A DNA stretch of 63,610 nucleotides, counting the filler, from Collodictyon triciliatum (lineage: Eukaryota): NCBI GenBank assembly GCA_043381765.1. It is 5 parts of 5 records of this genome, joined end to end, with 100 filler letters (N's around TTAATTAATTAA, not from the genome) between each part and the next. Parts side by side here need not be neighbours in the genome. Positions count along the whole stretch, not along the records: positions 56,609 to 63,610 come from JBHJMP010001601.1; 4 more parts are not named here. One strand, given 5' to 3'. Positions 1 to 63,610 of this stretch are shown here, piece by piece. The notes below the pieces were generated by a model. The model did no database searches. It had not been told where the DNA came from and saw only the letters and a program-made list of their open reading frames with translations. Position 1 is the stretch's first letter, and every line of letters starts with the position of its first letter. The position numbers and the translations under genes are program-made.

Positions 1-3000
1 CATGCGGACTTTCTTCAGTACGATGGCGACGGAATCAACGTTCATGTGCATCCACTTATCAGCAAAATCTTGTTGCATAGTAATGGATTTTTCATCCGAG
101 GTTATCAAGTTCGGTTTTGTGATTCTCGTTTGTGTACCATGCCTATCGATATAGAAGTAGAGTCCAATAGTCAAGTTCTTGTTTTTCCTCTCAGACTCTA
201 CATCTTTCTCAACCTTTTCACCAGTAAGAATTTCGATCTCCATCAAAAAGAAGGTATTTGGAGTGTTCTCTGGTGCAAAGCTGTTCAGGTTGAAAACAAC
301 AGCGTCATCATCCTGCTTTCGTACAAAAAGGCGAGTGTGCGAAGACTCTAGCGAGGTATCTTCCGTTGATGGGGTCTCTTGAGCGGATGTACCTGGAAAA
401 TAAAAACCATATGTATAAATATTACAGGGCGGCTCAGATCAAGAGTCATCACCTGTGTTACATATTACTAATACAACCATGTATTATGTAGTGGATATAA
501 AGTTGGTATCATTATGCAGGGGTCTAATAAGAGGCTAAATTGACTGATTATTTCCTATGACACACAAGACTTTACATTTTTGCTAGTATTCATAAAATTT
601 ACCTGTGTGGTGAGTAGCTGGAGATGGTACAATCTTTCTGCTGCGTGCAAGTGTGCGTAAGCTGGATAGCTAATGAAATGTAGACAGAAAAGATATTTGT
701 TCAAGTATAAATATGTAGACGTGTATGCGTATGCGTATATCGACAGATTGATAGGCATTTCGCATTGCTGGATATTGCCCAAATTCTTTTATTTTTGTGG
801 TTGCGAAAAAAAAATTATCATATAAATACAGCAACTTCGACGGACGACTTTACATATCATATATAGAGGTGAAACGAATATCAATCTGTTACATAGAGAA
901 CAAAACAAACCTTTTGTTCACCTCGCAATTTCTGCATAATAACATATGCAAGCCACCATAGTGGGCTTGCGATGAACCAACTCCATTGTAAGAAGACAAA
1001 CAAAGAGCTGTAGAAAATTTTGATAACCACGCTATCTTTTCCATATATGATATCAGACTGTTCGGTAATCTGATTCTGAACCTTTTGAAATATACGTTTG
1101 ACGAAGGCAAATATGCTACTAGATGTTTCAGTCTGAGAGCAATTTTCATTTTTATCTTCAGAGGCTTTGGAGTCATTTGTCTTCAACTGGGATTGAACCC
1201 TGCTAATAATATTGGGTGTACTCTTTGAATTCTTTTTCATCTTATCATTTCCATGAATTTCATGCTCTTTGGTCTTCTTTTCTTCAGCTTCCTTATTTTC
1301 TTCGGCTTTCTTCTTTTCTTCAGCTTCCTTCTTTTCTTCAGCTTCCTTCTTTTCTCCAGTTTCCTTCTTTTCTTCAGCTTCCTCTGTTTCATTTTCGTCT
1401 TTGTTGCTTGGTAGATTGTACAAGGTGGCATAGATCAAGTAAGCTAAATCTGTTTGACCATGGTATCATATATCCAACATTAATTAGTATCGAATGGAAA
1501 ATAAAGCAAAAATACAAGTAGAATAAACCGTTAATTACCGCTATGTCTCACAAGTGGTGGGTGAGCAGAGGAGGACAAAAGAAGAGAAAATAATACAGAA
1601 AGTATATGAGAGGGAAAGTGTGTTCTTACATAAGCAAACGAAGACAGGCAGGTATGTGATGGCCAGAACTAGAATGGCGATGATGAATCCAAGAAAGGCT
1701 ACAATTCCCACAAAAGCAGCGAGCCAGTTGACAGAGCGAGCTAAAAAGAAGACACCCAAATGATCCACAGAAGGCACTGTCTTACTATTTGCATTGAATC
1801 TAAGAGATACAATGTTTTCTATAACACTACGGACATAGGCTTTGTGTGAATTCCGTTCCGTATTCATGTACAGAATGTAAGCATTGTCCGTGGGCATGAA
1901 ATCATACATCAACTCCAAGAGCCAAGGAATGACAAACTTTGAGATGGGCGTGAGTACGTTCAGAGGGACGTGCGATATGTTTTCTTGCATTTCTTTCACA
2001 ATTTTTGAAAACATGACCTGAAATTTCCGTTCGGAATCTTGGCTAATCTCTTCGTACCCAGCACTTAATAGGGCGATGAGGATATTGATGAGAATGATGA
2101 CACATACAATCATGAAGGCGAAAAAGAAAAAGACGCCTGCAACCGGAGCTGCAGACTTGATATCATCAAAGTTGAACTCTCCAAAGAGCATGAGGCCGAA
2201 GCTGTATGCCGAATCGATTTGGGTAGAGAGATAGGGAATATACTTTCCTGTTATAACATATAGGGCAGACGCAAACGCAGCGAGGAATGTGAAGAGAATG
2301 ATCATAAAACCAAAGGTTTCCTGGACAGAGCGTCCTATGATCAGCACAAGAGTCCCGGCTGACTTTGACAAACTCATGAAAAAGAGGAGGCGAATCCAGG
2401 TCAAGAAAAGCAGGACGGAGAGCACAATTTGCTTGACCTGCACCACCGACACCTTTTCGAAAATGGATGCAGAAGAGTAATTTTCTAATTTGGATGTATC
2501 TAGAGTGTTGCTAACTCTCAATTGGAGAATTACCGTGTACAAAAGGGCACAGACCATAAGGATATCGATCCAGTTCCAGACACTCCGAAAGAACTGCTGC
2601 TTTTCTTCCTTCAGTTGGTGAACTTCGTGGATAAGAAAACCGATGGCGTACACCACTAGCAGGTAAAAGATGACCGATTCACGATTCAGATCCAAATCAA
2701 AGAGCAGCAGAGGTATATTTTCTACTTTGGTGATGGTAGTAACCGACCCAGAGCCAGGAAACTCAATAATTTGGGTGATGGTGCTAAGAAGTCTCAAGTT
2801 CTCATTAACTGCATGGTACTCTAGTAACACCACACGTGTTTGGTCGTCAAACCACCCATCTTCTTGCAACTGATTTGCCATAGAAATGGATTCCTCGTAA
2901 TCCATATCCAGAGACTGTGCGTACCCTCCCCCTTCGTAAAATGTATTCGATGAACCAAAGTAGGGAATTCCATGAAGTTCAGATTCGGTCTGATACCTAA

Positions 3001-7955: not shown

Positions 7956-10900
7956 TCATTCTTCCTTTCCAGCCAGTTGGTTCATAAGTAGCCGATTCAA
8001 GTTATTGCAACCAACCAAGTTGTCGTATATGATCTCCTCTCCGCGGAGCGACTCGTGAGACGTCCACATCAAATGCAACTTGATAACCCGTTCTTGTGTC
8101 TCGGAAATTATATCAATCAGCCACTTGCAAATTGCCCCATCCTCTCCACTTGTTAGCAGGCTTGGTGGCTTTGGAATGTATTTAATTGAGCGCACTTGAT
8201 TGTGAAGCTTCTTCTCAAACAGCACTGCTTCCGATTCAGGTTCTACCGAGTCTGGACAGATTCTCACGATTCTCACAAATCCGTCGCGGCATCCAAAAGC
8301 AACATACTCTTCACCACAGAAATCAAAGGTGTCCAGGCAATATAATGGATCTTCTAGGGGTTCCATGTAAGTCAAGGATGCGTCATGACCCTCCGAATCA
8401 GAAAATTCACCATATGCGAGAGACCCGGACTCATCAACAACAGCAAACCGTTGTTTGCTTCCGATAGATTTCAAAAAAACTATAGCCGCCCCATCTTCAA
8501 AGGGGGTTGAGGCCTCAACTTTCGATTTAACTCCACAAGAAAATGATTTATCTGTTTGATTATAGGTGATGTGCACCAACAGTGCGGATTCAGCTTCCAA
8601 GAGTATTGCCACGGAATTAAACTCGCAATCAAATTCTTTCATCACGAATGCGTGTACACCAGTTTTAAGACAGCTGCTTGCTTTTGATCGAGTATCGTAA
8701 AAACGAAAACTGGCTTCTACAATACAAAATATGACATCACTATCACCTAATCTTTTTACGTCAAAGCTTCCAACTTTTTTTCCCAGTTTACCCGTGGATA
8801 ATTCTTCTTTGTCGCCTTCAAAAGGATTAAACCACCTGTAATTGTCATCCTGAGAGTAAAATATCTTGGTGCTGTTTTCACCAACATGTAAATGAATATT
8901 CGGCACCATGTCAACAGTATCTTTCGAAACTAAGCAGCTCCCAGTCGATAGATTCCAAACTTTTATGCTTTTGTCAGAACTTCCCGAGGCAACTAAGTCA
9001 GCTTGGAAGATGCTGCCTTGAGACTCAGTGGCCGAGCCACCAGACCCGGCTGATATGCTTGGGGGCATGGACAAGGACAGGGCATTCACTGCTTTTTTGT
9101 GTCGTATCATCTGCTTCGTCTGTTGGCTTGTATGCAATTCCCATATCCAAATATTATTGTCCTTGCATGCACCCAAGAGATACATATTGTTATTGTACTC
9201 CATAATATCGATCTTCGTCACAACACCCGCAGGTCCCAGAATCTGGTCTATGACATCTTTTTTGGCCAAAGACCAAACATATATCATCGTATCCATGCCA
9301 GTTGAAACCAAAAAGTTGTCATGGCTGTTTGGATTATTTATCCATTTGACGTCATTTATTGATTTTTTATGATTACCCTCCAACTGGGCAATTATTTTCC
9401 CATCCAAACCATTGAAAATGTGGATCTTATCTCGTAACACCAGTGCAATATGAGGTATCTCATTTATAAATGTAATACTTAATGAATTCACTCTCACGTT
9501 ATCAGTTTGTAAGGTAGTGTATTCCTCACATATAATAGGGCTTTCCAGTTTTACGGTTATGACACTCGCATGGCTAAGCGCCCCAGCTACGACTATGCGA
9601 GTTTTGCCTTCAGCCTGAAAACATCCTATAGCCTCCACAGAACTTTTCATGTCGTATGATGGAGTACGTTGTTTTAGTACTGCTGAGGCATCAGATAGCA
9701 TTTCAAACCATAAAATAGTATAGTAGCCACTTATTGAACCTATAGCCACGACCAAATCTGTATTTCCTTTTTGAGTCTGAGAAAGGTCGCTCTTGAGTAC
9801 ACATATGGTAGTTATTTGAGTTTTTTCAATGGCATCAAGTGGCAAAGAGGTTATGTCTTCTTGGGTTGTTACATTACATATGGAAAAGGTACCCTCTTTA
9901 TCACCACTAAGAATATAATCCACGCCATTTACTCTTGCATGGGCCAACGACGATATTCCCGAACGAGCTCTCACAACCGGCACATTCATCATATCAACAG
10001 ATATATCCCAAAAGTGTAGCTTAGTAGTTTCTGAAGAACAAACATAGCTTTTATCCGATCCTTTTCCAGGAATCCAGCAAACTGTATTAACAGGATTTTC
10101 GTGCTTCAACTTTGGAAGCATACCAAATTCAACACCTTCCATTATGGCATTTGTGAATGTGCATCCACGTATGTTTGCATTTCGTAGGGTAACTCCAGTA
10201 AGATTCGCTTTTGTAAAGTTCACACCCTGCATTACTGCACAAGATAAATCAGCATGACGTATGTTCACCCCAGCAAAGTCAACTTTGTGCATAGGGATTC
10301 TGGAGTAACAAAGTAATGTAATTGCAATACTTGAAGCTTGCCAAATTTCCTCAGAGTCTGAGTCCTTTGAATGATTTATAATGTCGAAAAGATTTTTCAC
10401 AATATCTGGATGGTCACTTACATATTCAGATATTAGACCCAGTATAAGGGTATGGGTGGCCCTCAGCGAATAAATGACTGATTTTCTATCTTTCCAAAGG
10501 TCTGTAGACAATAGCTCTTCAATTGCTTTTTTGGCTATGAAAAAGTCTTTGATAAACCGTTGCTTGAATTGGAACTTCTCGCCAGACTCATCACGCACTT
10601 TTCTCAGGAATGATATTTTTGCCGAGGTCGATACCGACTTTTGTCCTCTCTTTTCTTTGATTATTTCAAGAAATGATGATCGATCGATACTTGAACTCTT
10701 TGACGTGAATATTTTTTGTGCAACAGCAATTGATATCGACTCGTCGATGTACTCTGTGGAAGCAGCTGTGTCCTTGATACTAGAGAACCAATTCCTTATA
10801 AAATTTTCAAAAATCTGGAATCTATTGATAGAATATTGATGGACCGGATGCACGTCTGGACTATCCGAATAGCCTGTAAGTATCAGATTGAGCATGAATG

Positions 10901-13628
10901 GAATGGATGACAGCTCTGCGATGGTATGCGCATGGAAACATAGCTTTCCAAAGTTGGCTGAAATGGCATCCTTTTTATATTTAATTTTAAGATGTTTATA
11001 TTCCTCGATGTACTTATCTATATCTTCACGTCCAAAAGGCAATAGGTAAAGGATCGACATTTCAATATCTAATTTATTTGGATTAAAAAGAGTCTGAAAG
11101 TCGGACAATGTCTTTTGTGCTTCTTGCCTGAATGTCAATATAATCTTGTATGATTTGATAGCTTCCCAGCTATTGAATAGCAACCTTCCAATATCATTAT
11201 CTTTCATTTCGTCAACGCCATCCAAAAGCAATATTTGATCGGGATTCTCTTGTGCCTTCTCGTGGCCATGTTGAACTGCATTGTCATCAGCATAAAAGGT
11301 GTCATCTGTATCATTCGCACTTGCCTCTGTAGGTTTAATATCGTATTCGGTAATAATTGCATCTTTTATCAAAGGAAGGTACACTGAGCTTGTGCTTAAA
11401 GTTTTCTTATTGGATAACATGTTTTCTACTCTCCGATTTTGAATGTTTTTCAAAAAGACTGTTTTTCCTATTCCTGCAGGCCCAGCCACAACCAAAATTT
11501 TTGAACTAGAATCCAAAAATGAGTTGAAAATGGATCCAGCAAAAGATGCGTCACCTTGTGGTGATGACTTTCCCATTGCATCTATGTATATTTCTTTCTG
11601 AGCCTGTAAAAATAGTGAATCTGCAACGTCTTCAGAATCAGAATCCAAAAGTATTTGTATATCTGTCGGCGAGTCAAACAATGTGGTAGGCAACGGCTCT
11701 ATAGAATGCAAAAAGAATGGCTTTGAATACAGGCTTTGATTCAGAAAAGTAAATCCTCTATTTAAGGGAGTTCCTTTCTCCCTTTTTTTAATATGTTGTG
11801 GCTGGGATGTGCCTTTTTCTACTCGACGTTTTTGTAAAAAGTGTCTCATCCGACTGGTATTTTCTAAAATAAATTGCGAAACTTCATCCATGAATATATT
11901 TGATTGAGATATGTCAGCCAGAAAAAAAAGGCCATGGTAGATGGCATCATGAACAGCAGGAGAATCATCAGCAGATGTAGGGAATATGTCCTTTATGAAA
12001 ACAAAACACTTGCAAGCTGTATCAAAGTCTGATAGCGTCAAGGCCCAGCTAAGCAAATCGATGGTATTCAAAACATTGTATGCATGACCTTCAAGGCTTA
12101 GGAGTGTTATCAATTTTGAAAATGCCCTATGATATTTTTTTTCTCGAAGTGAGGATGTCGCATCAATAAAGAGTATATAGCGTGTGGCGTCAAACCCAGT
12201 TAAGTCGCTTTTCTTCATGTATTGCAACGATAATCTTATTTGATGTGCAAAGAAATGCAGTGTTTGTGGTATAAATACCAACAGCTGTTCAATTTCTTGA
12301 AAATAAGCCGATATATTCACGCTATCGATACAGCATAAGTTCAGTATTCGGCACATGTAAACGCAGAAGGTCCTCTGTCGATAGAAATCGAGCAAATGTA
12401 CTTGGATAGAGCCCAACTGTCGCAGTAACTTTTTTACCAAGTCTGGCATGTGCGTTTTGAGTTCGTCATCAAAAAACCAGCTATCCCCTAAACATTGAAG
12501 AAAGTCTAGAAAGAGCTCCTGGCGAGAAAAACTCTGTGTCTCGCTACCTGGGGGGTTTTCAGCCTCTTTACTATCAGGATCCAAATCTCTGATAGAATCA
12601 AAATTGACATTCAGTAGCAAATCCAGTAGTGCCTTCTTCCAGTGATCTTTTAAGCATCTGCCAAGAAACTTGAGTTCTTTCAAGTGGAGATAGGTCTTAT
12701 TTTCAAAATCAACCATCTGTATCACTTGATGAACCTTTTCCATATATCTTTTCGTGATAAACTCCGGGCCCCACCGAATTTGATTGCATAACTGCAGCAT
12801 ATTTCCAGGAGGTTGGGTTGGAATCTGAGGCGAGAATTTCGTCTTGCTATTGTGTAAAGGACGAAAAGGATTTGGAGGTAATTGCTGGGAGGATTTTGTT
12901 ACCGCTTGGACTTTGCTCCTGTCACCTTTTTTGCTGTGACTTACAGACCTCCTATCTTCAGTGCCATTGTCATGCTGAACGTGAGAGGGTGGTGAGTTCC
13001 CTGGTTGGTTTGGGCTGGCATCTTCCCTTCTACTTCTCGTAGTTTCAACCCCAGTACCTATGTCTGGCATCACACCAATCATTTGATTGATATTTGGCGA
13101 TGGGAGCTCCTCGTTGAAAGAACCATTCAGATCTTCCTTTTGGAGAGGTGTCTGATACCCTTGATGGAATGATATATCCTTGCATCCTCTCATGATCGGG
13201 TCGTCTCTGTGTGATGATAAGGCATTGAGAGAGTACGATGCACCACCGCCATTGGTTTTGAAGTGGATATGGATGCACTGCGTCGAACTTTTTGAGGCAG
13301 GGTACGTGACAAGAACGTGGTGGGACAAGTCGAAATGTAATGTATAAGAGCCGGGTGACGTGAGATCGGCAGCAAACGGGTAGGCTTGAAGCGGACTCTT
13401 AGGGTACAACGCGTGTTCTCTATCTTGGTTTGTAAATTGTGCAAATATGTCAGTTAGGGCGTGCTCAAAGCCCATGGAGAAGGTTACTGAGGTCTGAGAA
13501 TCCCACAGACCAGTGGATGGATCAAAGAGCACAGGCTGGATGTGTTGCCCATTCTCGGAGGCATACAAGTGCAGGGTCTCTCCCAACCGGATCAATGCAT
13601 GACGCGCTTCCAAGTTTGAGGGGTGCAT
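7956..13628 (-). CDS. NACHT (STAND) NTPase + pentapeptide repeats + WD40 repeats, NLR-like, 1890 aa, uninterrupted ORF
   Basis: Walker A GPAGIGKT (~11461-11483), Walker B LLLDGVDE, KIILTFR, LLPF, IPFML, WHD-like FKQRFIKDFF. Pentapeptide block ASSIAITLL...ADLSCAVMQGVNFTKANLTGVTLRNANIRG...VEFG. WD40 motifs VASGSSDKSIKVWNL, LVSTGMDTMIYVWSL and LTSGEDGAICKW. Confidence 0.92.
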   Translation of the reverse strand: MHPSNLEARHALIRLGETLHLYASENGQHIQPVLFDPSTGLWDSQTSVTFSMGFEHALTDIFAQFTNQDREHALYPKSPLQAYPFAADLTSPGSYTLHFDLSHHVLVTYPASKSSTQCIHIHFKTNGGGASYSLNALSSHRDDPIMRGCKDISFHQGYQTPLQKEDLNGSFNEELPSPNINQMIGVMPDIGTGVETTRSRREDASPNQPGNSPPSHVQHDNGTEDRRSVSHSKKGDRSKVQAVTKSSQQLPPNPFRPLHNSKTKFSPQIPTQPPGNMLQLCNQIRWGPEFITKRYMEKVHQVIQMVDFENKTYLHLKELKFLGRCLKDHWKKALLDLLLNVNFDSIRDLDPDSKEAENPPGSETQSFSRQELFLDFLQCLGDSWFFDDELKTHMPDLVKKLLRQLGSIQVHLLDFYRQRTFCVYMCRILNLCCIDSVNISAYFQEIEQLLVFIPQTLHFFAHQIRLSLQYMKKSDLTGFDATRYILFIDATSSLREKKYHRAFSKLITLLSLEGHAYNVLNTIDLLSWALTLSDFDTACKCFVFIKDIFPTSADDSPAVHDAIYHGLFFLADISQSNIFMDEVSQFILENTSRMRHFLQKRRVEKGTSQPQHIKKREKGTPLNRGFTFLNQSLYSKPFFLHSIEPLPTTLFDSPTDIQILLDSDSEDVADSLFLQAQKEIYIDAMGKSSPQGDASFAGSIFNSFLDSSSKILVVAGPAGIGKTVFLKNIQNRRVENMLSNKKTLSTSSVYLPLIKDAIITEYDIKPTEASANDTDDTFYADDNAVQHGHEKAQENPDQILLLDGVDEMKDNDIGRLLFNSWEAIKSYKIILTFRQEAQKTLSDFQTLFNPNKLDIEMSILYLLPFGREDIDKYIEEYKHLKIKYKKDAISANFGKLCFHAHTIAELSSIPFMLNLILTGYSDSPDVHPVHQYSINRFQIFENFIRNWFSSIKDTAASTEYIDESISIAVAQKIFTSKSSSIDRSSFLEIIKEKRGQKSVSTSAKISFLRKVRDESGEKFQFKQRFIKDFFIAKKAIEELLSTDLWKDRKSVIYSLRATHTLILGLISEYVSDHPDIVKNLFDIINHSKDSDSEEIWQASSIAITLLCYSRIPMHKVDFAGVNIRHADLSCAVMQGVNFTKANLTGVTLRNANIRGCTFTNAIMEGVEFGMLPKLKHENPVNTVCWIPGKGSDKSYVCSSETTKLHFWDISVDMMNVPVVRARSGISSLAHARVNGVDYILSGDKEGTFSICNVTTQEDITSLPLDAIEKTQITTICVLKSDLSQTQKGNTDLVVAIGSISGYYTILWFEMLSDASAVLKQRTPSYDMKSSVEAIGCFQAEGKTRIVVAGALSHASVITVKLESPIICEEYTTLQTDNVRVNSLSITFINEIPHIALVLRDKIHIFNGLDGKIIAQLEGNHKKSINDVKWINNPNSHDNFLVSTGMDTMIYVWSLAKKDVIDQILGPAGVVTKIDIMEYNNNMYLLGACKDNNIWIWELHTSQQTKQMIRHKKAVNALSLSMPPSISAGSGGSATESQGSIFQADLVASGSSDKSIKVWNLSTGSCLVSKDTVDMVPNIHLHVGENSTKIFYSQDDNYRWFNPFEGDKEELSTGKLGKKVGSFDVKRLGDSDVIFCIVEASFRFYDTRSKASSCLKTGVHAFVMKEFDCEFNSVAILLEAESALLVHITYNQTDKSFSCGVKSKVEASTPFEDGAAIVFLKSIGSKQRFAVVDESGSLAYGEFSDSEGHDASLTYMEPLEDPLYCLDTFDFCGEEYVAFGCRDGFVRIVRICPDSVEPESEAVLFEKKLHNQVRSIKYIPKPPSLLTSGEDGAICKWLIDIISETQERVIKLHLMWTSHESLRGEEIIYDNLVGCNNLNRLLMNQLAGKEE

Positions 13629-14251
13629 CCTGTCTGTAGGTCCTTTTTTCCCCTTTTAATGGAAAATATTAGGAACCCGGCTTTCTTTTGAGCCTTCCTT
13701 TTTTTTTTCTTTTTTTTTTTCCACTTTCTTTTTTTATTCCTTTTCCCTTGTTTTAGTGCCCACAGATCACATTGAGAGCAAGGACAGTACAGGTTGGGGT
13801 TGAACTCATATACATTAAAACACTAGGAGTGGCGCATAGCCAGTGATGAGGAGAAAGACTGATCAAACAGAGCCGAATAGAGACATCAAGTTGGCAGAAC
13901 AGCGCTCGTCTGTCCTGTGCGCTGCTCGTGTGCAGCGGATGCGATTAATCTGTTGCACTCGGAGATCGGCTTGGGGTTTTGTGTTTGGCAGAATGGCAAT
14001 TTTGTTCTGGTGTATTTTCAATGAATATATAGATTTATGGAATTTATATTGATTCTCAATTATTTATACATTTGGACAATATCAATCATTATGATACTCA
14101 ATTTCATCCAATATGCATATATTTGTATGTTTTTATGAGATAATGTGGACTTTTGTTCTAAGATAACCCATTGCGGGTGTCGCGATACCGGTGGGTTATT
14201 AATTTCACCAGTGTTGTCTTGGTACTTTGTCCTCCAATGTTTCAAGTAGCC

Positions 14252-14482
<231 letters not shown>

Positions 14483-15238
14483 TATAATGTGTTTGTTGCT
14501 GTTTNNNNNNNNNNNNNNNNNNNNNNNNNNNNNNNNNNNNNNNNNNNNNNNNNNNNNNNNNNNNNNNNNNNNNNNNNNNNNNNNNNNNNNNNNNNNNNNN
14601 NNNNNNNNNNNNNNNNNNNNNNNNNNNNNNNNNNNNNNNNNNNNNNNNNNNNNNNNNNNNNNNNNNNNNNNNNNNNNNNNNNNNNNNNNNNNNNNNNNNN
14701 NNNNNNNNNNNNNNNNNNNNNNNNNNNNNNNNNNNNNNNNNNNNNNNNNNNNNNNNNNNNNNNNNNNNNNNNNNNNNNNNNNNNNNNNNNNNNNNNNNNN
14801 NNNNNNNNNNNNNNNNNNNNNNNNNNNNNNNNNNNNNNNNNNNNNNNNNNNNNNNNNNNNNNNNNNNNNNNNNNNNNNNNNNNNNNNNNNNNNNNNNNNN
14901 NNNNNNNNNNNNNNNNNNNNNNNNNNNNNNNNNNNNNNNNNNNNNNNNNNNNNNNNNNNNNNNNNNNNNNNNNNNNNNNNATATATTTATATCTCGCTGG
15001 GTAGAGGGGGAGATAGACCTTCTTCTGTGCGCCAATTTCGATTACCGGTGCAATGCAGAGGCTTGGCCGTGGAGGCACGCATTTTGTCCGTTGGGGTGCC
15101 GCTTTCCAGACAACTCGGCCGCGAGGCAACAAGACAAATAACCTCAACAAGAAAATAAACAAAAACAAAAAACAAAAAACAAAAAACATCTTGCGACAAG
15201 AAAGCAGAAAACAAAGGCGAAGGCCAGGGCCAGGGACG

Positions 15239-17060: not shown

Positions 17061-17160
17061 NNNNNNNNNNNNNNNNNNNNNNNNNNNNNNNNNNNNNNNN
17101 NNNNTTAATTAATTAANNNNNNNNNNNNNNNNNNNNNNNNNNNNNNNNNNNNNNNNNNNN
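17061..17160. other. Artificial contig-joining linker (N44-TTAATTAATTAA-N44)
   Basis: Six-frame stop 12-mer at 17105-17116 flanked by Ns; the same construct recurs three more times. Confidence 0.97.
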
Positions 17161-32880: not shown

Positions 32881-32980
32881 NNNNNNNNNNNNNNNNNNNN
32901 NNNNNNNNNNNNNNNNNNNNNNNNTTAATTAATTAANNNNNNNNNNNNNNNNNNNNNNNNNNNNNNNNNNNNNNNNNNNN
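32881..32980. other. Artificial contig-joining linker
   Basis: TTAATTAATTAA at 32925-32936 within Ns. Confidence 0.97.
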
Positions 32981-45260: not shown

Positions 45261-47787
45261 TCACGCGACCAACGCGTCGTACATCTCTTTGAAGCAGACA
45301 GAGCGGTATTTGTGCTCCAAGCGCTCCATGTACCCTGCATAATCTTTCGTGTGGAAATTTGGAATCGGCTCCTTCGCAAATCTTGTAAAAAGGTCGTTTG
45401 CCAAGACTGTTTGTCTCAACGAAGGACTGGAATGTCGAAAAAGGGATACACATACATAAACAAACCAATCAGGTCCTCTGAGGGTCTGAGCGAGATGAAT
45501 CCACGCCACTTCAGAAAAGTCCAGCACATCCCAGAAGGATTGCTGCCACCACCGCGATAGGATTCGAGATATAGGTAGACCAGCTATCCGAAAACAAGAG
45601 AGGATAAAGGGCTCTTCATTCTCTAGGACGTATTCCACCAGCCAGGAATAGCAGAGGACACAGGAGAAGTCAAATTCAAATGTCCGTTTCGGCCACGAAT
45701 ACACCGAAGATGCGTGTCTTGAAAAGCTGGATAGAAAGTTGAGAGACTCGGACACCGCATTCACACCGAATGGTTGAAAAATCATGAGTGTGGTTGCTAC
45801 AAAATAATCGCTGTCATATGTAATTGCTGGGTGCATGGTTGGTTTCAGAATAAGTTTGTCTGTGTCTTTACTCCCTAAAAATGTGCCGGATTGAGGCCCA
45901 GCGGATGGCTTTACCACCTCTGGGTTGGAGACGAGGGTCAAAGTCTTGGGATTTTTACAGAGTTAGGTTTTGATATCTTGAAATAATGCTATTCATAAAA
46001 ATGTAATCTTATGAGTCCATTCTTCAGAGATATTACTTTGTAGTCAAAGAGATATTTCTCTGATTTATTTCGTAAATAAAAAAAAACCTGTTCCAGGAGA
46101 GACACCAAATCTGTCTGGAATGAATGAGATACTGGCAAAACGTGCTTGGCATACCGGGATATCTTTTCGATGGACCATATTTTGGTAGGCGGTGATTTCT
46201 TTTCAAAGTGACAAATAGGATCAGAAAATAAATAAATAAATAAATAGTGTAGTATGTTATTTTATGACCCAAGAAACTGGGAAGTTTTAATTTATGCAAT
46301 GTATAATGCTGTTTTCTAACCTTCGAAGATAGTGCTCTGGGTGTTGCTCGTGGCGGTAGATGGGATTGGTATATATGAAGAGAGGCACACCAACAAAAAG
46401 GAATGTCAAGGTTTGAATGAGACCCAGCATTGGTGCTTACTCTTCCTAAATGCTGCAAATGTAGGTTTGCATACATTCTTAGAATATTTCATTTATCTTG
46501 ATCTCTAAAGGATAAAGAAGGAAAACAAATAAAAAGGAGAGAAGAGAAGAGGAGATGAGAAAAAGAAACGAATTTATTGATTCCAATATATCATCAAGAA
46601 AAAAACTCCTACAATTATCTGTTCGACTTGAATATTTGCCTTCTTCCATTCTTCTATTAGTCCAGCCTCGACACTAATTTAAAAATCACTCATTATGCGC
46701 ATGTTTAATATGCATATTTAGAATTTTGCTGTTTTATTCGCAATTAAATCAGGCAAATAGGGTAACCTTGTTAACAAATGTTGAGCAATTTTGTTTCCTG
46801 TGGCTAGATAACTATTTGATGGTGGCAAAGAGCCTGTTATTGGCAAATTTGCTTCCAAAGATACTTTTGGCCTTCTTTTTTCTTGCGCACCGCCAATAAA
46901 ATAAGAATTGACGACGATGAGGTTTCTCATCAATGAATTCAAGTCACGAATGACAGGGGCATCTAATTTAAGTTGGTTTTTTTTCGTTTTAGAAATATGT
47001 AAAGAAAAAGAAAAAGAAAAAGAAAAAGAAAAAGAAAAAGAAAAAGAAAAAGAAAAAGAAAAAGGAGGAACACGCACATATATATATATATCTGATTATT
47101 GTCATATAGGTACCTGCGTTATCATCAACCCTAGTTTGGAGAGAGCATAGATTATCCAATACGCCATATTTTTCCTGTAAATACTCTTGACTATACAATG
47201 ATGTCGACAGAATAGAGAGAAAAGAAAGGGCAACCTAATAAAACAGTATATAACCAAAAAAAAATAATTATTAGATTCATAGACGATGTGACGTGATATA
47301 ACTCGCAAGGTTCAAATTATCATCATATCAAATAAAACCACTCATATTTGTGGGAAAACATTATTGATGAAAAGAAGCGAACATAATCCATATCAAGGGT
47401 CCAATAAGATTGCTCGGTGGGCGGGTCAAAGTTCAATCGAATATAACGATTCATAATAAAAGTAATCTTTTCCATATCACGTGTATCGACGTAAATATGT
47501 GAATAAATAGAGCCTAAATAACAGTAGTTCAGTTTTCATTACAAGTACAAACATTCAAATGTTTAAAGTTGAATGAGTTAACAAAGCATGTCCGAAAAAA
47601 ATGAAAATGAAAAGAGGGAATATGACGCAATCGAGAATATTTGTTGTATTATAATACCCATGACAAGCTGTAAAATAGCAAAGAATTCAATGATGCTTTC
47701 GCTTGAATTGTTAAAATCTGATGAATTGACCATGATCTCAGAACAATATTCAAATTTGAAGATAAATTAATGATGATGATAATGATG

Positions 47788-47857: not shown

Positions 47858-50800
47858 AGGATGGTGCTCCCTATATATTTGACTCAAGTCGTGTAATTTG
47901 AGTGGAAATTTTTGAAAAATAGAAAGCGTACAAAGGTCATCACTTAGAGTTGGACAGTCGAGGAGAGCCTTGACTTTTTCGGACAAAATCTCCAATATTC
48001 TATGGAAAAATAGATAAAATATATATTTTGTATATTTGTGATATACCAAGAAAAATCTATTGCGCAATTTTTCAACATAAGTGGTCCAAATCAATCACAA
48101 AATACGCCGCAAATAGAAAAGAAAAATTGCAATACCTTGTTTTCATGAGTGCGTGAAATCCCTTCCTCGTTGACGATAAAGCAGATAAACAGTATACAGT
48201 TTCGTTGAAGTCAGAAGAACCAGCTAATCTACGATGCGATTTACTGCCCATCAGTGAGCGTCTTACTTTATGGATTGGCATCCCTCATCATATGTATTAC
48301 ATTAATGATTCAATCTTGTGTTGTCATTCGATTGTGTGCATAGGATAATATATGAAACCTATCGACAAATAATCGGAAGGTATCCTCAAAAAAATGTTGT
48401 TGTTGAATCCAAAGGCATCCAATCGAGTGGAGACATACTGTGACATTATGGATTTTACACATTTCTTTTCATTCTCATTGAATACAAAAATAGAAGAAAA
48501 AGAGTACCGGAGGCCATGGAGGGGCACCATAGTTTATGTGTCTCGATAATATCTCTGATGTACGTAAATCCTATGCGATGCTTGACGACTTGGGAGATGA
48601 CATTCAAATATCCTTCTTTAATCCTATGTTAATTTTGTATTGATATCTAATAGACTCGTTTCAAAATTGACATCAATTAGATTATCTTTGAATCGAATAA
48701 AAAAAAACATTAATCAGATTATGTAAAATTAAAATAGTAGACATTTATCGACTTATATGAGCATTACGGCTGAGGTAGCTTTGAGCTGATGGCAGAAACA
48801 ATTTCACAAAGCAGATGTTGGTATACATTCGCGTCTTGATGACTGTATTTTAAGAGTAAATCGAATCGTATATTTAACACAAACATCACTTGGCTGGATA
48901 AATAGACAAAAAAAAATCAGGAAAGCATAACAGACGGGATTTGCATTAAACAAATTCACTATATGAATACAGTTTAATGTACATTCTTTCATTGAACGGA
49001 ATAAACTTGTACCCATAAAAAGGACTGCGCTCAAATATTTTGGTTAATATAATTGATATGTAAGTATGGCTGCTAAATAATCGCTCTATCTGCTCTTTCT
49101 GATTACTAATCTCATCAAGGTCTTTTTGAATGCATGCGATTTTATTCGCTATCCTCTCGATATTACTCTCCTATGTAAAAACATTAAGTTTGGTAGAAAT
49201 GCTACAGGCCCGCATAAAAACGCTGTATAGAATAGATTTTTAAGCGTACACTTAAAATAATCGATATCCCTTTCTCGTAGTTGACTTCAAGGAAGCATTC
49301 CAGCGAGTTGAAAGACGAGTCCAATAGCGACTTTTGTAATGTCAGTGATATTGGTAATAATAATTTAATCAATTTAATGGTCCAAATCGTCAAAATGATG
49401 CGTAAATATCACTGAAATATTAAAGGCACTAGTATCAAAATATGCATATCAAATGGGGAAAGATGAAGGCGAGGACATCATTAAGTGTTGACTAATCATA
49501 TTACTTTATATCTCGAAGTCTTGGTGCGAAATAAGGTATCTGTTAGAATCTGAATCAACAACTCCACTGTTCTTGACACTGATACTAGGTTGAATTATTA
49601 AAGAAAAAATAGGTAAATTTACCATTTTCCATATTAATTTTTGATATTTTATTTTGATAAAGAAATAAAATGTACCAGAGCCCTCCGCTTTACCAATAAA
49701 AGACTCTTGAAAGGCTGGTGTAAGATTGAATCCGCAAATGTGTTAAAAAATGATAAAAGATCGGTATCATTTAAAGTATGATGTTGCTTAAAATTTTCAT
49801 ATCAAATAGATCCAAATAATACGTACGAAGCGAAAAGAAAATGAACGTAATAATGATACAAAACATCATACATACATACATACATACATACATACATACA
49901 TACATACATACATACATACATACATACATACATACATACATACATACATACATACATACATACATACATNNNNNNNNNNNNNNNNNNNNNNNNNNNNNNN
50001 NNNNNNNNNNNNNNNNNNNNNNNNNNNNNNNNNNNNNNNNNNNNNNNNNNNNNNNNNNNNNNNNNNNNNNNNNNNNNNNNNNNNNNNNNNNNNNNNNNNN
50101 NNNNNNNNNNNNNNNNNNNNNNNNNNNNNNNNNNNNNNNNNNNNNNNNNNNNNNNNNNNNNNNNNNNNNNNNNNNNNNNNNNNNNNNNNNNNNNNNNNNN
50201 NNNNNNNNNNNNNNNNNNNNNNNNNNNNNNNNNNNNNNNNNNNNNNNNNNNNNNNNNNNNNNNNNNNNNNNNNNNNNNNNNNNNNNNNNNNNNNNNNNNN
50301 NNNNNNNNNNNNNNNNNNNNNNNNNNNNNNNNNNNNNNNNNNNNNNNNNNNNNNNNNNNNNNNNNNNNNNNNNNNNNNNNNNCATACATACATACATACA
50401 TACATACATACATACATACATACATACATACATACATACATACATACATACATACATACATACATACATACATACAAACATACATACATACAACATAATA
50501 ATAATATATCGATGATAATATTAAAGTTGTTGAAAATTCAAAAAAATTAACAAGATAAACCTTCTGGGAATGGAATCAGATGAGATATGAAGCTGATACA
50601 GAAAACAAAAATAGAATATTGCTCTTCTATTTTCCATTCAGCAGGGAATGTGCCCCTATGGTAAGTTTTATCTTTATATTTTTCTTTTTTAAAAAGAATT
50701 AGATGATAACACGATATGAAGTCTTATAATGTGTTTATAGCATACTTGCTCGGTAGTAGTGATTCTTTTCTGGTGAGCATTTGAATTCGATTCCAGATGT

Positions 50801-51492: not shown

Positions 51493-51592
51493 NNNNNNNN
51501 NNNNNNNNNNNNNNNNNNNNNNNNNNNNNNNNNNNNTTAATTAATTAANNNNNNNNNNNNNNNNNNNNNNNNNNNNNNNNNNNNNNNNNNNN
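51493..51592. other. Artificial contig-joining linker
   Basis: TTAATTAATTAA at 51537-51548 within Ns. Confidence 0.97.
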
Positions 51593-56508: not shown

Positions 56509-56608
56509 NNNNNNNNNNNNNNNNNNNNNNNNNNNNNNNNNNNNNNNNNNNNTTAATTAATTAANNNNNNNNNNNNNNNNNNNNNNNNNNNNNNNNNNNN
56601 NNNNNNNN
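56509..56608. other. Artificial contig-joining linker
   Basis: TTAATTAATTAA at 56553-56564 within Ns. Confidence 0.97.
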
Positions 56609-56680
<72 letters not shown>

Positions 56681-56774
56681 AACCATGTTTGAGACATGAC
56701 ATGATGACTTTTTATCTCTATGATTTTTCGATTCTTTTTGTCCCGAGAAGAACGCTCTCGGTTGATTGGAATGT

Positions 56775-58292
56775 CTCATTATTGCCGTACTTGGCGAAGC
56801 AAATGTTAACAGCTTATCATAATAACATTAAGGAGCATTTTGTAAAGAGGTTAATGCGCTTTATAAACCAAACGGCTCCTCAAGATGAGAATATGACGGA
56901 AGCTATTAAAAAGACAGAGTTATGAAAGTTAAAAAAAAAAGCCATCTTCAAGAAACCCGAAATACCGGAGCAATATCAAGAATGGGCTATAACGCATTTG
57001 CATCGTATCACTCCCAGCGATATTGTAAATGGTATCGAATATGACGGCAAAGTCAATCCAAATAAGTACATTCCATGTCTAATATACATGAATCGCATTT
57101 TTGGGACATTGGAACCAAACTTTTTCAACCAATCTCTAAAAGAATTACCAATATATCATATCATATCATATCATATCATATCATATCATATTACTCTAGA
57201 TACTGCACGTTTGATAGATATATTAGTATTGTCTGGAAAAACATCGTTAATGAAGAATATATCAGGATGCAAAGAGACACTATGGGATGATTATTTTTAA
57301 ATGAAGAAGAGTGTCCTTCATCAAAGAGACTACAATTTCAAATACATGATACAAACAGACGGCTTGGCGGGATTATTATTGTTTGAAAAGGAAGGGATTT
57401 CAAATTTCAAATTCCTATTTAATAAAAAAAAGACCCAATATATATATGAACTTTCCGAAGAGCAGCTATCTTTATTAGCGAAAAAAATAAAAAGTTGGAG
57501 CGGACGCAGGCTAGTTTAATTTGGTTTACATGGTGGATGAGACAGTAAGAAATTACGTTACACAGCACACCAAACAAGACATGATAGCAAATCTCTTAAA
57601 AATAATAAAATACTCTTGCGCGAGAAAAAAAAAAAGTACAATGCTTCAGGGATATACATGGCAACGGGTTTACAAAGTGCTGTTTCTTTTGGTATCAGGA
57701 CTTTTGAAGAGAATCAGCAGTTTGAGACATCAAGAGCATCTTTAATCGATTTAGAGACAGAACTGAGTAAACAACGTTCATGCACGGTCGATTATGGAAA
57801 ATTTAGAGAATATGTATCAATGAAATCAAGATACCACATAGAATTATCACGATTTTATGAAGTGACTTTTTGAAAGATGAGATGGAGACAGTATGTTAAT
57901 ACAAAAAGAAGTGAACAGTTGTTTATGAACTGAATCGAAAAGACATTTGGCAAGGACGTTGTACTGGCGTATGGAGACTGGAGCAGAAAATTTTCGATGA
58001 AGCATTTCATGGCAACAATCGGAAGAGGGTTATAAAAAAATACCATCCAAACATTTTGAAACAGTTAGTGTAAACGAATTTAGAACATCCAAGATATGCT
58101 GCAACTGCGAAAAAGAACTGGAATAAAGGAAACTGAAAGGAAATTAAAAAAGTGTATAGATGTCTCATATGTAAAGAATGCAATCGGTCAGAAAGCAAAC
58201 AAAGTGTATTCTTGACAAGAGACTTTAACAGCGCTAATAGCATACTCAAGAAAGTTGTTTTAATCCTTCGAAAAATATGCACCTTCCTCTAA
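56775..58292 (+). pseudogene. Fanzor (Fanzor1-like, TnpB-related RuvC nuclease) pseudogene, 5' truncated, with multiple stops and frameshifts
   Basis: Stitched translation: YHNNIKEHFVKRLMRFIN, KLFQPIS, HITLDT, MIQTDG, RuvC-I VGADAG*FNLVYM (D at 57503), LRYTAHQ, ETELS, LAYGDWS, VNEFRTSKICCNC (E at 58076), CLICKEC, RuvC-III TRDFNSA (D at 58221). Confidence 0.88.
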
Positions 58293-58420
58293 AAAACAGA
58301 CTGTCGGGTCTTTCCTGGCAGGCTTCATCACTACACAATCCTTGTGAAACAAGTGGTGAGACATTGGATACTAGTGCACCAGGTTTACCAATCGAAAGAT
58401 TTTATCATCCTTTTAGTCAA
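58293..58420 (+). ncRNA. Candidate Fanzor omegaRNA scaffold / element right end
   Basis: Lies directly 3' of the ORF. Nested stems: CCTGG(58314)/CCAGG(58379), TCACTA/TGGTGA, CTTGT-GAA-ACAAG, CATTGG-ATA-CTAGTG, and AATC-GAAA-GATT. Confidence 0.5.
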
Positions 58421-58794
58421 GTATAAGGGAAATAAGGATATGACCTAAAAAATGAAACGAAAAGAAATGAGAAAGAAAATGAAGAAAAAAAGAAGCAGAA
58501 GAAATATTGTCAGAGGAGGAAAGATTTTTCTGCTATGGGCATTTATGGCTTATGACTATTTCTTCATAAACTTATTGGTAATCGCTTCTCTTTGTTGCTC
58601 GTTAAATACGACTGTGAATGATATTAAATTATTCTAAATACTAAGAATAATTTAATATCACTTTAATTGGACCTGGGTGCAGAGCATTCCATGCATCCAG
58701 ACTGCAAACAAATCACTCTAATAGTTTTCAGAATTTGTCCCCTTCTTCACTTCTTTATAGCCATACAACAACCAAGAGATGAGCTAATCCAGCC

Positions 58795-61045
58795 TTAGTC
58801 ACAATCTATCTTGTGCGGGTATTGCATGATGAGGTTGTCCGACCCAGTCTACTTTTTGGATGAATAATATTATTTGTTTCTTTTTTTTGTCTTCGTTTTT
58901 ATTTAACTTTTGCTTTCATTCTCATTCCTGTAATGAGTATTTTTTTTCTTTTTTAGTGATATCTTTTTTCGTTTTGCGTATTCTTTGTTGTTTACTGGGC
59001 AAGGATTGAAGAGAAAAATGGATCGAGCGATTGCTTTACATCCGGCGGCATAGAGGACAGGAAGGAACAGAGATCGCCACAAAGCTCGCTTAGCCTAATT
59101 GCGGTGATTTAGAGGGCATGTATCTTTACAAGATGTGCAGGAATCTAAATGAGACGAGATATGACATGATAATGCGATAACGCAAATTGCAATTGAATGT
59201 CTCGTCTCACCAGCGGCACTGCTCCTCGGTTAGCGATGGTGAGTTTGGAGCTTCCAATGCAGCTTTGATTTCCTCAAATCGCTGTTCGATGCGTTTTTTG
59301 AATGGAACCGATACTGTTCCAATCTGATTCAGTGATTGCTATGCAAAAGAGGGGTAGAATGGGGAAGGAAGGGGATAAAAGAGAAGAATCACTCTTGGGC
59401 TTCATATACCACCTCGATGAGTATATGTATAAAAAGTAGAAGTATATGTACAATACGTTATTATCCATACTAGTTGAGCGGGACTGGGTTTTATGGCTTA
59501 CATAGAGAAGTGCGACCTGGTGAGCGAGATATTTGTGGACTCGTGCAGTAATATCGCGTTGTATTTGCACAGACATAGACCAGACTTGATTGTAGTGAGC
59601 TACGGTTTGTACGTAATCTAAAGGTTTTAAGACTGATTGAGTTTATTATAGTTTACAGAAATTAATAGAGCACTCTATAAAGAAAAAGAAAAATCCTGAT
59701 AAAAAGTAAATGGAGAGTGTCAATAAAGGATTCTTAATATATATATAACAATTTTTCAAGTTCATCAAAAGTTTCCTTAGCTTTTTGTTTTGTTTTGTTT
59801 TGTTTTGTTTTGTTTTGTAAATCTAAATATTAAAAAAATAAATCAATTCGAAACCTCTCAGATCGGTGGTTGTTTCCTTTTGGATAGAGACAGACAATCC
59901 AAACTGCTCAGCAGTAAGAGGAAAATGTCCCTCGAGTGACCGGGATTGAATAAAAGACTGCCAGAAGGAAAATGAGAAATTAGAAATTAGAAATTAGAAT
60001 AAAGGGAAATAAAATCTATTTAATCGGGTGAAAAAGAACATCTAAACATTATTCACAACAGCTGGATTTTTTGTTTTTCAAAAATAATAATAATAAAGGG
60101 CTGCATATTGTGTTGATCATATGTAATACATAAATGGTAGATCATACATAGTGCTCTCCGTCGATAGAATATGAATACAAACACCATGGATAAGTATGAT
60201 TCCATGACTTACCTCAATATCGAGTGATGAATCATATATTTGCAAGGATTGCTCTAGTTGTGAGATAATTGCATTTAGAGTAGCGTTTGCTGACCACTGT
60301 GGCTGGGGATATGTACGATCATCCTGCGTGCATTTGAAGTGAATGACATGCTTGGGAAAGCATGATGAGGAAAATACCAAGACAAAAAAAATCATGGGTA
60401 TCCTTTTGGGAGATCAATTCAATACTATTAACCCCTAGACGAAGAGGAGCTGTTATGCTAGACTCATTTAAAAACGAGATAAAATATTTGAAGATCGACC
60501 AATTGTTTTTTTCATGGATATATTTTATGACAGGATTAAAACAAAATATGCAATTGAAACCCGTACAAGTTGCTTCTTCTCCAGGAGAAATTCGTGCTGA
60601 GAAAGAAGAGAGAGCAGTTGCTGGGGAAGGAAAGAGTGGGCAGAAGACGCGGCTCCATGTAAAGGGAAATCAAGCTGGACTTCGACTGCTCATGGCAAGC
60701 CATATTACATATGTTTAAAATATGTAAATGAAAGGGGAAAATGATTCTTGCTTGGGCAGCGGTCTGAGTATTTGAGTTTGCTCAGACTTAAGATAAAAAA
60801 AAGCAAAAAAAAAAAAAAGTTCGCAACAGGGGCAAAGGACACAAAAGAACTGAAATAGAAATATTGACAAGAAATAAAGACAGCTTTCTTCTAGGAACGA
60901 GGCCTCTCTAGATGTACGGCAAACAAGAAGCCTTGAAAGGGGAACAGAGCACCAGGCAACAGGACACATAGCACCTACCTTTAAATAATTGTTGATCGGG
61001 TCCAGGAAGAGGCTCAAAGAGAGGCTGTGTGTTCCTGAAGCTCAT
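58795..61045 (-). CDS. Hypothetical protein, ~9 exons
   Basis: A phase-consistent GT-AG exon chain runs from MSFRNTQPLFEPLPG to ...QYPHKIDCD*; no family recognised. Confidence 0.55.
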
Positions 61046-62247
61046 CCTAACACGTTCACTTAGTTCAGCTTGTGGAGAGTCCACCAGGTTGTTCGCTGCC
61101 CTTTGGCATTGTTCGAAGGTGTGCCTTTACCCTGCTCGCCTCCGAACAGATTAGAAAGGCAGCGCATCTCCCGCAGCCGAAAAAAAAGTTTGCTATTTTC
61201 CACAAATAATAAATCATGTGTGGAAACTACACTATTTAAGTTTATAGTATCTAAAAACTGGAAATTTTAATGTTTATAACTGCAATTATTATTATTAATA
61301 CAATATTGTATATAGATCTAACTGAAATGATCGCATGGCCTTCCTTAGATTGCGTTTGCATTTATCCGCACAATGTTTTGTGCAAAATGGAAAATACCAT
61401 ACTAACCTGGAATGAAGCCAAAACTGGAAATTATAATCCACCATTGCACCGGCAAACGACGGCTCAATCTGGCCAAGGCCAACAGCATCAAGGGAGAAAA
61501 GCAGAGAAAGCGGCAGTGCGATGAGCACCTGGTTACAAGATGCGAAGGGCTGGACTCTTGCAAGGCCGATCCGAGCCAGTATTGTTGGGCACATATAATA
61601 TTTTAATTGACAAACTTGTAAACGGCAATATGATGATCAAGAAAAGAGGTGTGAAGGAAGGCCACATTATTTTTGGTGTGCCTCAGAGTTCGCCCTCCGT
61701 GGCGGTCGGCTGTGTTGTGTTGATGCGTTGCTGGCAGGCTGAATCTCAGCCCGTATAATCATTGGCGAGCACGATAAGCTTAGGATAAATAAAGTATATC
61801 GATGCAGCGGTAGTTAAGGCAGATCCGGAGAGCCTGATCGGTGTAATATCACGAGCTTCCGAAACGGCCATACGGCTCTCTTTTTATTATTATTTTTTTT
61901 TTAAAAAAAAAACCCGGCAAAACACGAAACAAAAACAAGTGGATGGTCTGTTATATGTATTTTAGTATTTTTCTTTCGTACTCTCCTTTTCCCCTGCTCG
62001 TTTAAACACACATGTTTATGTGACCTATAATTACTTTGGAAACGTTGGGGCCTTTCATCAAGAGCACATGCAACTCCCATATTTGACAAGGCACTCGCCC
62101 ATCAAAACTGTCCCGTTCAGTTTAACAATCGTTTCGCTCGGTTTATACATATCTACATTCGATGAGGCCCCTATTCTGCTCTTCTACTGACACGGTTTTT
62201 GGTGACCCCCAATTCCTGGACTAATTAATCTCCTTGTATGCAGAAAA

Positions 62248-63431
62248 ATGGAGAAGGTGCAAACGATTGTTGCAAACACATCACAATTGTCTGTTGTGAT
62301 ATCTTCTATGATGTTGGCTTCACACATACTCGGTTCCGTATATCCCTTTTTCATCTCTGTAATTGCACTGGCACCTGCATAGTAAGTAATCTTCCTTTTT
62401 TTTTTCTTACATGTTGCTCAAAAGTTGAACGATTATTTTACCAATCTACTCATACTCCCACCATACTATCGAACTAGTACGATGGGTGTCCAGCACTATT
62501 TCATTTGGAACATATTTACAGCTGCAATATACGAGCAAAACACGATAATTGTATCTATTTTTTTTCGTATTTCGTCGCAACATACTTCAGATATATAACC
62601 TGCCAAAGTTTTTCTGATTACCATGATTTATGAAAGAAAAAAAGAATACGTGAAAACAATGAAATTTTAATCATTATAGCCATCGTTATCTTATTTACAA
62701 GACATACTTTTCCTAGAGTTTATCTAATATAAGTATTACAGCATATACAACCCACGATGTATACTATAGGTTCTTCTAAATATCACGATTGTTATCACAT
62801 TTGGCTACTTCTCCAAAACATTCTGGACTCAGACAGAAGCGTTGAAATTCTACATTGTTGTAAACATCATCACTGGAATCTCAGCTTTTGCCAGTTACAT
62901 TTTTTTGTATGCAGTAAAGCACGACGAAGCATACTTGTATGTACCAATATTGTTTCATATAAATATTGACTTTTCCTAGAAATTGTCCTATAAAAATTCA
63001 TATTAGAACGATTCTTGCTTATTTACTGGGTTTTAATCATGATATAAGGTTTCAGCCGGCTTACGGATATTATGGAATTATCGGGGCATACTCTGTTGTA
63101 CTGAAGCAAAAGTGCCCTGAAATGGAGATATTCCACTTCCCACTGAAAGTAACAAAATTATTCATGTGATGAATTTCATGTCTATTTTACTGTGCTTCAT
63201 TCAATATCCAGTTACCCCATTTTCCTTTAGTACCTGCCCACCATCTACGCGGGGGTGTTTCTCCTCGTGCCGCAGTATTTGCCCGCTGGAACAAATATGA
63301 TTTTTGGCGTGTTTGGGACCTTCTACGGATGGTTCTACCTGAGATTCTACCAGAAGCATGATAATGGGTCACCTAGGGGCGACCAGAGCGATCAATTCGG
63401 ATTCCACACATTCTTCCCTCCAATTTTGCAG
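62248..63431 (+). CDS. TMEM115: TMEM115 (rhomboid-like Golgi membrane protein), 3' truncated
   Basis: IWNIFTAAIYEQ, YGIIGAYSVVLKQKCPE, and WFYLRFYQKHDNGSPRGDQSDQFGFHTFFP. Confidence 0.88.
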
Positions 63432-63528
63432 TATGCCTCATCTATTGGAGCCAAACTAAAAGAGACGCACTGCAATGAAAGCACATCCACATTATTTCCA
63501 TCTCATTTCTCTCTCACTCTCCCTCTCT

Positions 63529-63577
<49 letters not shown>

Positions 63578-63610
63578 CTTTCCTCTTTTTTTTTTTTTTT
63601 TCATTTTCTT

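Follow-up and report, generated by a model that had tools for sequence, protein, structure and literature searches.

What is the stretch of DNA at 56680-58292 (+), in which no long open reading frame (ORF) is present and the motifs of an RNA-guided nuclease are spread over a string of short frames? It lies in a window of 63,610 nucleotides from Collodictyon triciliatum, by which we mean the whole stretch of DNA that was analysed. We consider it very probable that a Fanzor1 pseudogene occupies the region 56680-58271 (+), Fanzor1 being the relative that the bacterial protein TnpB has in eukaryotes and viruses. An intact Fanzor1 protein has about 620-650 amino acids and a single RuvC site, which consists of the RuvC-I Asp, a relocated Glu before a C4 zinc finger and the RuvC-III Asp. 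The Fanzor1 proteins that have been solved or tested bind a guide RNA from the 3′ end of their own element and cut DNA that matches the guide, and, by analogy with them, the family of the relic would also be expected to bind guide RNA and to cut DNA under its guidance.

The homology is extensive. When the intact 648-aa metagenomic protein P0002 was compared with the window by tblastn, it matched 56680-58056 with an E-value of 1e-128, and two more pieces, in other frames, extended the match to 58271, after which the final frame remains open until a stop at 58290-58292. Our own frameshift-aware alignment (BLOSUM62; gap −11/−1, frameshift −14, stop −6) follows P0002 over residues 97-620, and 317 of the 523 aligned residues are identical. 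A profile of 15 intact relatives (A1) matched eight colinear ORF pieces of the relic in the six-frame translation, with E-values from 4.6e-25 to 3.8e-5; beyond these eight, nothing in the whole window fell below an E-value of 0.16. Based on the tblastn, alignment and profile matches, we conclude that the observation is real and that the window carries a single Fanzor1 copy. The original prediction, which had bounded the relic at 56775-58292, was right about the locus, but the homology starts about 95 nt further left and ends at 58271. A frame-1 read-through of the relic (P0001; 447 residues, with stops written as X) was also compared with 5.8 billion proteins, which yielded 182 relatives at E ≤ 1e-3 from 4400 candidates, headed by P0002 (E = 2.7e-131, 53% identity), which carries all of the invariant residues. 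An exhaustive HMMER search of 1.84 billion representatives with the same read-through returned 1156 matches at E ≤ 1e-3, of which 463 reached E ≤ 1e-10 and 23 reached E ≤ 1e-30.

Stitching the frames together recovers the motifs in the order originally described, and a translation check found every one of those named, distributed over three reading frames (Table 1). Four residues of the catalytic region, D364, G521, E555 and D604 in the numbering of P0002, are invariant in the 15 relatives, and the relic keeps all four codons; the earlier claim that three acidic catalytic codons survive therefore holds, with the catalytic D, E and D and both CxxC pairs still legible. The RuvC-I motif is cut by a frameshift and followed directly by a TAG stop at 57512, and the stretch between the two CxxC pairs contains a TAA stop at 58124 and a frameshift at 58145. 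We take the YGDWS column to be the RuvC-II position. The VNEFRTSK motif contains the [TS][TS] pair ahead of the zinc finger. The C-terminal motif of Fanzor and TnpB proteins has been described as D-X(125,275)-[TS]-[TS]-X-X-[C4 zinc finger]-X(5,50)-RD (Bao and Jurka 2013, PMC3627910), and every element of it occurs in order in the relic read-through; on the intact P0002, D364 and T558 are 194 residues apart, and C590 and R603 are 13 apart. In Fanzors and a TnpB subset (‘TnpB2’), the RuvC-II Glu is described as replaced by Gly or Pro, with an alternative conserved Glu about 45 residues away (Jiang et al. 2023, PMC10530073). In the relic, Gly stands in YGDWS and Glu in VNEFRTSK, positions that are 34 residues apart on P0002 (G521 and E555), and the description of the relocated glutamate as a hallmark of Fanzors and the TnpB subset agrees with that source.

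Table 1. Positions of the relic, its motifs and its surroundings in the window, and of two viral elements given as examples
Feature	Position	Strand	Remarks
Joint: 44 N, TTAATTAATTAA, 44 N	56509-56608		Adjoins the poly-A on the left of the relic
Poly-A run, 71 nt	56609-56679	+	Opens the piece that holds the relic; relic cut at about codon 97
Decayed coding sequence, very probably Fanzor1	56680-58271	+	Matches P0002 residues 97-620; 6 stops, 6 frameshifts
(ATATC)n microsatellite	57153-57191	+	Inside the coding remains; insertions in the alignment, local frame disturbance
QTDG	57352-57363	+	T, D and G invariant in 15 intact relatives
RuvC-I VGADAG	57494-57511	+	Shifted frame; Asp GAC 57503-57505 = D364, invariant in A1
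YGDWS	57970-57984	+	Gly replaces the canonical Glu; G521, W523 and S524 invariant in A1
VNEFRTSK	58070-58093	+	Alternative catalytic Glu 58076-58078; E555, T558 and S559 invariant in A1
Zinc-finger cysteines	58097-58181	+	CCNC 58097-58108; CKEC 58170-58181
RuvC-III RDFNSANSI	58218-58244	+	Asp codon 58221-58223; R603, D604, N606 and N610 invariant in A1
3′ flank, expected place of the omegaRNA scaffold and right end	58272-58560	+	Neither detected
Example viral elements	L037:8956-11389; L013:9121-11906		

To which branch of these nucleases does the relic belong? Similarity of the repaired protein had been proposed as a check, and the relic read-through gave three matches at E ≤ 10 among the proteins of the PDB, all of them Fanzor1: GtFz1 (2.4e-8), SpuFz1 (1.5e-4) and PpFz1 (2.1e-3). 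The intact P0002 matched the same three (GtFz1, 2.1e-28; SpuFz1, 3.7e-23; PpFz1, 2.7e-24), and the next matches were myoglobins, at 0.38 or worse. With the A1 profile the E-values were 1.1e-72 for PpFz1, 4.4e-71 for SpuFz1 (profile positions 2-608 of 637) and 2.9e-51 for GtFz1, and apart from these three Fanzor1 proteins nothing in the PDB fell below 0.19. The matches span the N-terminal (REC) half as well as the RuvC half, and the designation of the relic as Fanzor1-type, made originally, is upheld by the fact that Fanzor1 proteins are its sole significant matches among solved structures. SpuFz1 of Spizellomyces punctatus (PDB 8GKH, 9CEU-9CEZ), with which the profile aligns over nearly its full length, shares the motifs GxDPG, GDWS, EFRTS-C4 and RD, and PpFz1 of Parasitella parasitica (9CF0-9CF3) and GtFz1 of Guillardia theta (9CER-9CET) have the same motifs in common with the family. 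Compared with these three proteins, the relic is a pseudogene that lacks its 5′ part, its identity to them is low and visible by phmmer or profile alone, and beside it neither guide RNA nor ends were detected.

Pfam added little to this assignment. Among eight pieces of the relic, one had a sub-threshold match to Cas12f1-like_TNB (E = 0.0077, scoring 16.8 bits where the cut-off is 26.3), and the intact relatives reached the threshold of no Pfam family either. Weak Pfam matches of relic pieces to DUF5958, Ist1 and ARMH3_C were dismissed as noise, and the last piece, of 51 aa, matched only PRDM9 zinc fingers in the PDB, which we regard as spurious.

The copy had been called dead, and so it is, with more lesions than the original prediction implied. 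No single frame stays open for the whole protein: the path contains six stops (56923 TGA, 57298 TAA, 57512 TAG, 57871 TGA, 57931 TGA and 58124 TAA) and six frameshifts (56737, 56780, 57490, 57542, 58033 and 58145), and codons 1 to about 96 are absent. At the microsatellite, a second frame (57066-57287) bears a KLFQP match to the A1 profile. In the printed sequence, A or T runs contain or adjoin four of the six frameshifts, and these four may be sequencing errors. The same explanation cannot apply to the six substitution stops, because they are of all three kinds and sit within well-aligned blocks, opposite F, K, R, K and Y of P0002. At the 5′ side, the match starts right after the poly-A run, which itself adjoins a joint; identical joints occur at 17061-17160, 32881-32980 and 51493-51592, and because they recur we regard the window as assembled pieces strung together. 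Assembly rather than deletion may thus account for the missing 5′ end. The proposal that a consensus could be resurrected from the relic did not hold, since one copy yields no consensus and an intact natural relative, P0002, already exists; because intact natural relatives exist, reconstruction is also unnecessary.

Where, then, do the intact relatives reside? Fanzor1 in giant viruses has already been published (Saito et al. 2023, PMC10432273; Bao and Jurka 2013, PMC3627910). When IMG/VR was scanned with A1, at least 571 pattern matches were obtained, at least 268 of which encode a relative, and we analysed the best 80 of these at least 268 (L001-L080). Among the matches listed, many of the IMG/VR loci lie on contigs named as giant-virus metagenome-assembled genomes, and the nearest relatives of known origin lie on giant-virus contigs, with 37-47% identity to P0002. 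The genes next to four of the loci include, as would be anticipated for giant viruses, those of an mRNA capping enzyme, of SNF2-type helicases and of a YqaJ recombinase, and a single viral record of 194 kb holds two intact Fanzor1 copies. A scan of metagenomes for the contig of P0002 found a sole locus, the distant L081, with 21% identity. One further relative, P0153, is a 378-aa member of the Fanzor1 family whose source names it ‘6-pyruvoyl-tetrahydropterin synthase’; either this name is a mislabel or the protein is a fusion, probably.

The position of the relic was examined in a FastTree tree of 69 rows, comprising the relic, four close proteins, 23 of 75 viral ORFs and 41 further picked hits of the HMMER search; 52 near-duplicate viral ORFs and four short fragments were left out, and the rows include no named references for Fanzor1a-d, Fanzor2 or TnpB. 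The relic clusters with P0002, P0006, P0020 and P0148 (local support 98). Its clade falls within a clade of 40 rows (support 97), where it branches in a trichotomy alongside the two clades in which the IMG/VR sequences lie. Four short protein fragments (P0146, P0189, P0239 and P0284), on contigs of 513-629 nt, share 70-81% identity with the relic, whose frames one of them switches between; judged by sequence, they look like further decayed copies from the same or a related genome. For the earlier inference that this lineage hosts a Fanzor1 family, they are the sole hint of copies beyond the one in the window. It is possible, though we regard it as rather unlikely, that the relic, the intact P0002, the partial proteins P0006, P0020 and P0148 and these four fragments represent a nuclear Fanzor1 lineage of poorly sampled cilium-bearing eukaryotes that is sister to the giant-virus clades, with exchange of elements between virus and host and with at least one member intact and possibly active.

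The viral relatives allowed the extent of the mobile unit to be defined. Pairs of IMG/VR loci that are 89-99% identical have common blocks of only 1.7-2.7 kb, which end 64-100 nt past the stop. A right-end motif, TTKAAATnnnnAARGGTGTAA, is present 25-120 nt past the stop in 72 of 78 loci, and similarity stops there; its reverse complement is found upstream of the ORF, at 0.02-0.8 kb (mostly about 0.4 kb), in 35 distinct elements. These elements are mostly 2.3-2.8 kb long (range 1.3-2.8 kb) and have no room for a transposase. Their inverted-repeat ends are of about 25 nt (TTACACCnTT....ATTTAAAACGC and its reverse complement), and the variable positions within the two repeats co-change. In addition, a conserved structure resembling an RNA spans approximately the last 56 nt of the Fanzor ORF and approximately 80 nt downstream of it (L002-L080; alignment A3, model R1); of its 20 predicted pairs, 11 show compensatory changes, and its end coincides exactly with the right inverted repeat (GGTGTAA). 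Fanzor guide RNAs have been described as overlapping the right inverted repeat (PMC10530073), and from the sequence comparison it is likely that the structured 3′ RNA is the guide-RNA scaffold of the viral Fanzor1 clade.

In contrast to these elements of about 2.4 kb, with their 25-nt inverted-repeat ends and covarying 3′ RNA, the relic has none of these features in detectable form. The covariance model R1, built from 62 viral relatives, found no guide-RNA scaffold beside the relic: run over the whole window with filters off, its best match was at 48397-48509 (E = 0.78), and within about 400 nt downstream of the relic it gave just two matches, with E-values of 6.4 (58592-58657) and 8.9. A diverged scaffold could be missed by this model, because it was built from relatives only 37-47% identical to P0002. 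Local alignment of nine viral 3′ regions with 58250-58560, judged against shuffled sequences, gave Z-scores near 0 for seven of the nine; the best query, L008, had a purine-rich match at 58481-58544, and 2 of 300 shuffles scored as high. The viral end motif had no match beside the relic with up to three mismatches allowed, and the only inverted repeats around the relic were poly-A against poly-T, its left side being lost at the contig joint. Colinear matches to the guide RNA and right end that had been noted by eye at 58312-58460 were rejected, as they had no R1 match, were nonsignificant in the shuffle tests and contained no end motif. A candidate second copy at 48178-48336 (+) (tblastn E = 0.026), followed by the best R1 match mentioned above, was likewise rejected; it contains no motif, and since the family profile finds nothing there we take 48178-48509 (+) as chance. 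Because no scaffold, end motif or inverted repeat of this kind was found beside the relic, its context as an element is read from relatives that are 37-47% identical to P0002.

Decayed loci of this family are known elsewhere, the ‘ghost loci’ of S. punctatus being decayed Fanzor loci according to a figure legend in PMC10432273. Like the relic, they are the remains of a dead Fanzor1 element in a genome, but they keep the guide-RNA end and lose the gene, whereas the relic keeps most of the gene and its guide-RNA end was not seen. Relative to the giant-virus copies, the relic belongs to the same protein family and to the same clade of 40 rows, within which the viral proteins, at about 620-650 aa, resemble P0002 in length; the viral copies are intact and the relic is broken, its clade is distinct from theirs, and the record in which it is found is not that of a virus but one that carries cellular genes of a eukaryote.

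Other pieces of the window carry long uninterrupted ORFs for an LRR protein, a polycystin-type channel (1541-4153, −), a NACHT-pentapeptide-WD40 protein and a BROMI-domain protein (45261-45962, −). Such ORFs would suggest a ciliated eukaryote whose genes have few introns. That of the NACHT-pentapeptide-WD40 protein (7956-13655, −) is one uninterrupted ORF of 1898 aa that combines a NACHT NTPase, pentapeptide repeats and WD40 propellers in a STAND-type architecture. The polycystin-type ORF has a single distant homologue (26% identity) among 5.8 billion proteins and the BROMI-domain ORF has none among longer proteins, and from these almost relative-less ORFs the host lineage seems to be very poorly sampled. 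Plain N gaps lie at 14505-14980 and 49970-50382, and the ORFs seemingly open in all six frames at 14-17 kb and at 49.8-50.6 kb are produced artificially by N. Because the window is a chain of joined pieces, neighbourhood across the joints is not to be trusted.

Could the identification itself be mistaken? Membership of Fanzor2 or of bacterial-type TnpB (IS605/IS607) rather than Fanzor1 deserves consideration, since the C-terminal motif is common to all three families, including the mimivirus TnpB-like protein L79 (PMC3627910), and the relocated Glu is found in Fanzor2 as in the relic (PMC10530073); moreover, the 41-aa zinc-finger piece, taken alone, has a weak match to the L79 chain (PDB 9B0L), whose E-value of 0.2 is the best for any of these proteins. 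The relic, P0002 and the profile, however, all match the three Fanzor1 proteins across both halves, and none of them matched a Fanzor2, TnpB or Cas12 chain in the PDB at E ≤ 1, which makes this assignment extremely unlikely. Still closer to impossible, in our estimation, is a live gene that merely looks broken, its frame being restored by introns, programmed frameshifts or a variant genetic code. Fanzor genes have been reported to capture introns (PMC10530073), but here stops of three kinds stand inside well-aligned coding blocks and the RuvC-I motif itself is broken by a frameshift and a TAG. A variant code offers no rescue, because the standard code leaves ORFs of 799-1898 aa uninterrupted elsewhere in the record.

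The origin of the locus invites two further explanations, the stronger of which is that the relic arrived within a larger integrated fragment of a giant virus, as an endogenous giant-virus element, and not as a free transposon copy. The location of all relatives of known origin on giant-virus contigs, with at least 268 IMG/VR stretches encoding one, would be consistent with such an arrival, as would the viral genes that neighbour them in four loci and the virus-integrated Fanzor1 elements described in Ectocarpus (PMC3627910). Against this, the 80 viral loci supplied 1384 ORFs of 80 aa or more, and not one of these had a match at E ≤ 1e-4 in the parts of the window beyond 56600-58300. The piece that holds the relic (56609-63610) had no Pfam match at E ≤ 0.01 for any of six tested ORFs (99-123 aa), and when the flanking ORFs of this piece and of the piece to its left are taken together, none of ten has a Pfam family. 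Given these Pfam-less flanking ORFs and the missing matches to viral-locus ORFs, there is no sign of a larger integrated virus in the approximately 7 kb in view, although a larger viral region may lie further right, and, with the relic's clade also standing apart from both IMG/VR clades by FastTree support, we judge a viral fragment to be unlikely. A lesser probability still attaches to the idea that the piece comes from another organism, such as a virus or another eukaryote, as a contaminant or misjoined contig. The window does consist of pieces linked by N-linker-N joints, the relic's piece has no recognised host gene, its assignment to the same organism as the other pieces comes from the record, and no public sequencing run, of RNA or of DNA, is listed as really containing the stretch, the 11 listed each sharing at most 0.07 of the sampled words. 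Yet 12 disabling lesions within 1.6 kb of gene, together with a microsatellite insert and long runs of A and of T, would be typical of neutral eukaryotic DNA, and the G+C content of 0.30-0.40 lies inside the range of the window (0.24-0.50); a foreign source is accordingly quite improbable.

We return to a Fanzor1 pseudogene as the most probable reading. A mobile element that carried Fanzor1 would have inserted here or in an ancestor, and the inserted element would then have decayed without selection, losing its first approximately 96 codons (as far as the assembly shows) and gaining six stops, about six frameshifts and the microsatellite. The likeliest source would be a small transposase-less element bounded by inverted repeats, of the kind that the relatives form in giant-virus genomes, an analogy that we put forward tentatively and as somewhat short of probable. 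With no recognisable guide RNA or element ends, the relic would do nothing now.

By itself the relic is ordinary and matters little, being one more dead copy in a catalogued family, whose members were shown in 2023 to be RNA-guided nucleases; publications since 2013 have covered Fanzor1 of eukaryotes and of giant viruses, decayed and virus-integrated copies among them (PMC3627910; PMC10432273). Should the host lineage prove to be one from which Fanzor is so far unrecorded, the relic would contribute one small observation on gene traffic between viruses and their hosts. The results on the viral elements are more useful than the relic: the search that it prompted led to the intact P0002 and to a family that occurs in large numbers, and has moved recently, in giant-virus genomes, where it forms compact elements, about 2.4 kb long, whose right inverted repeat doubles as the 3′ end of a covarying guide-RNA-like structure.
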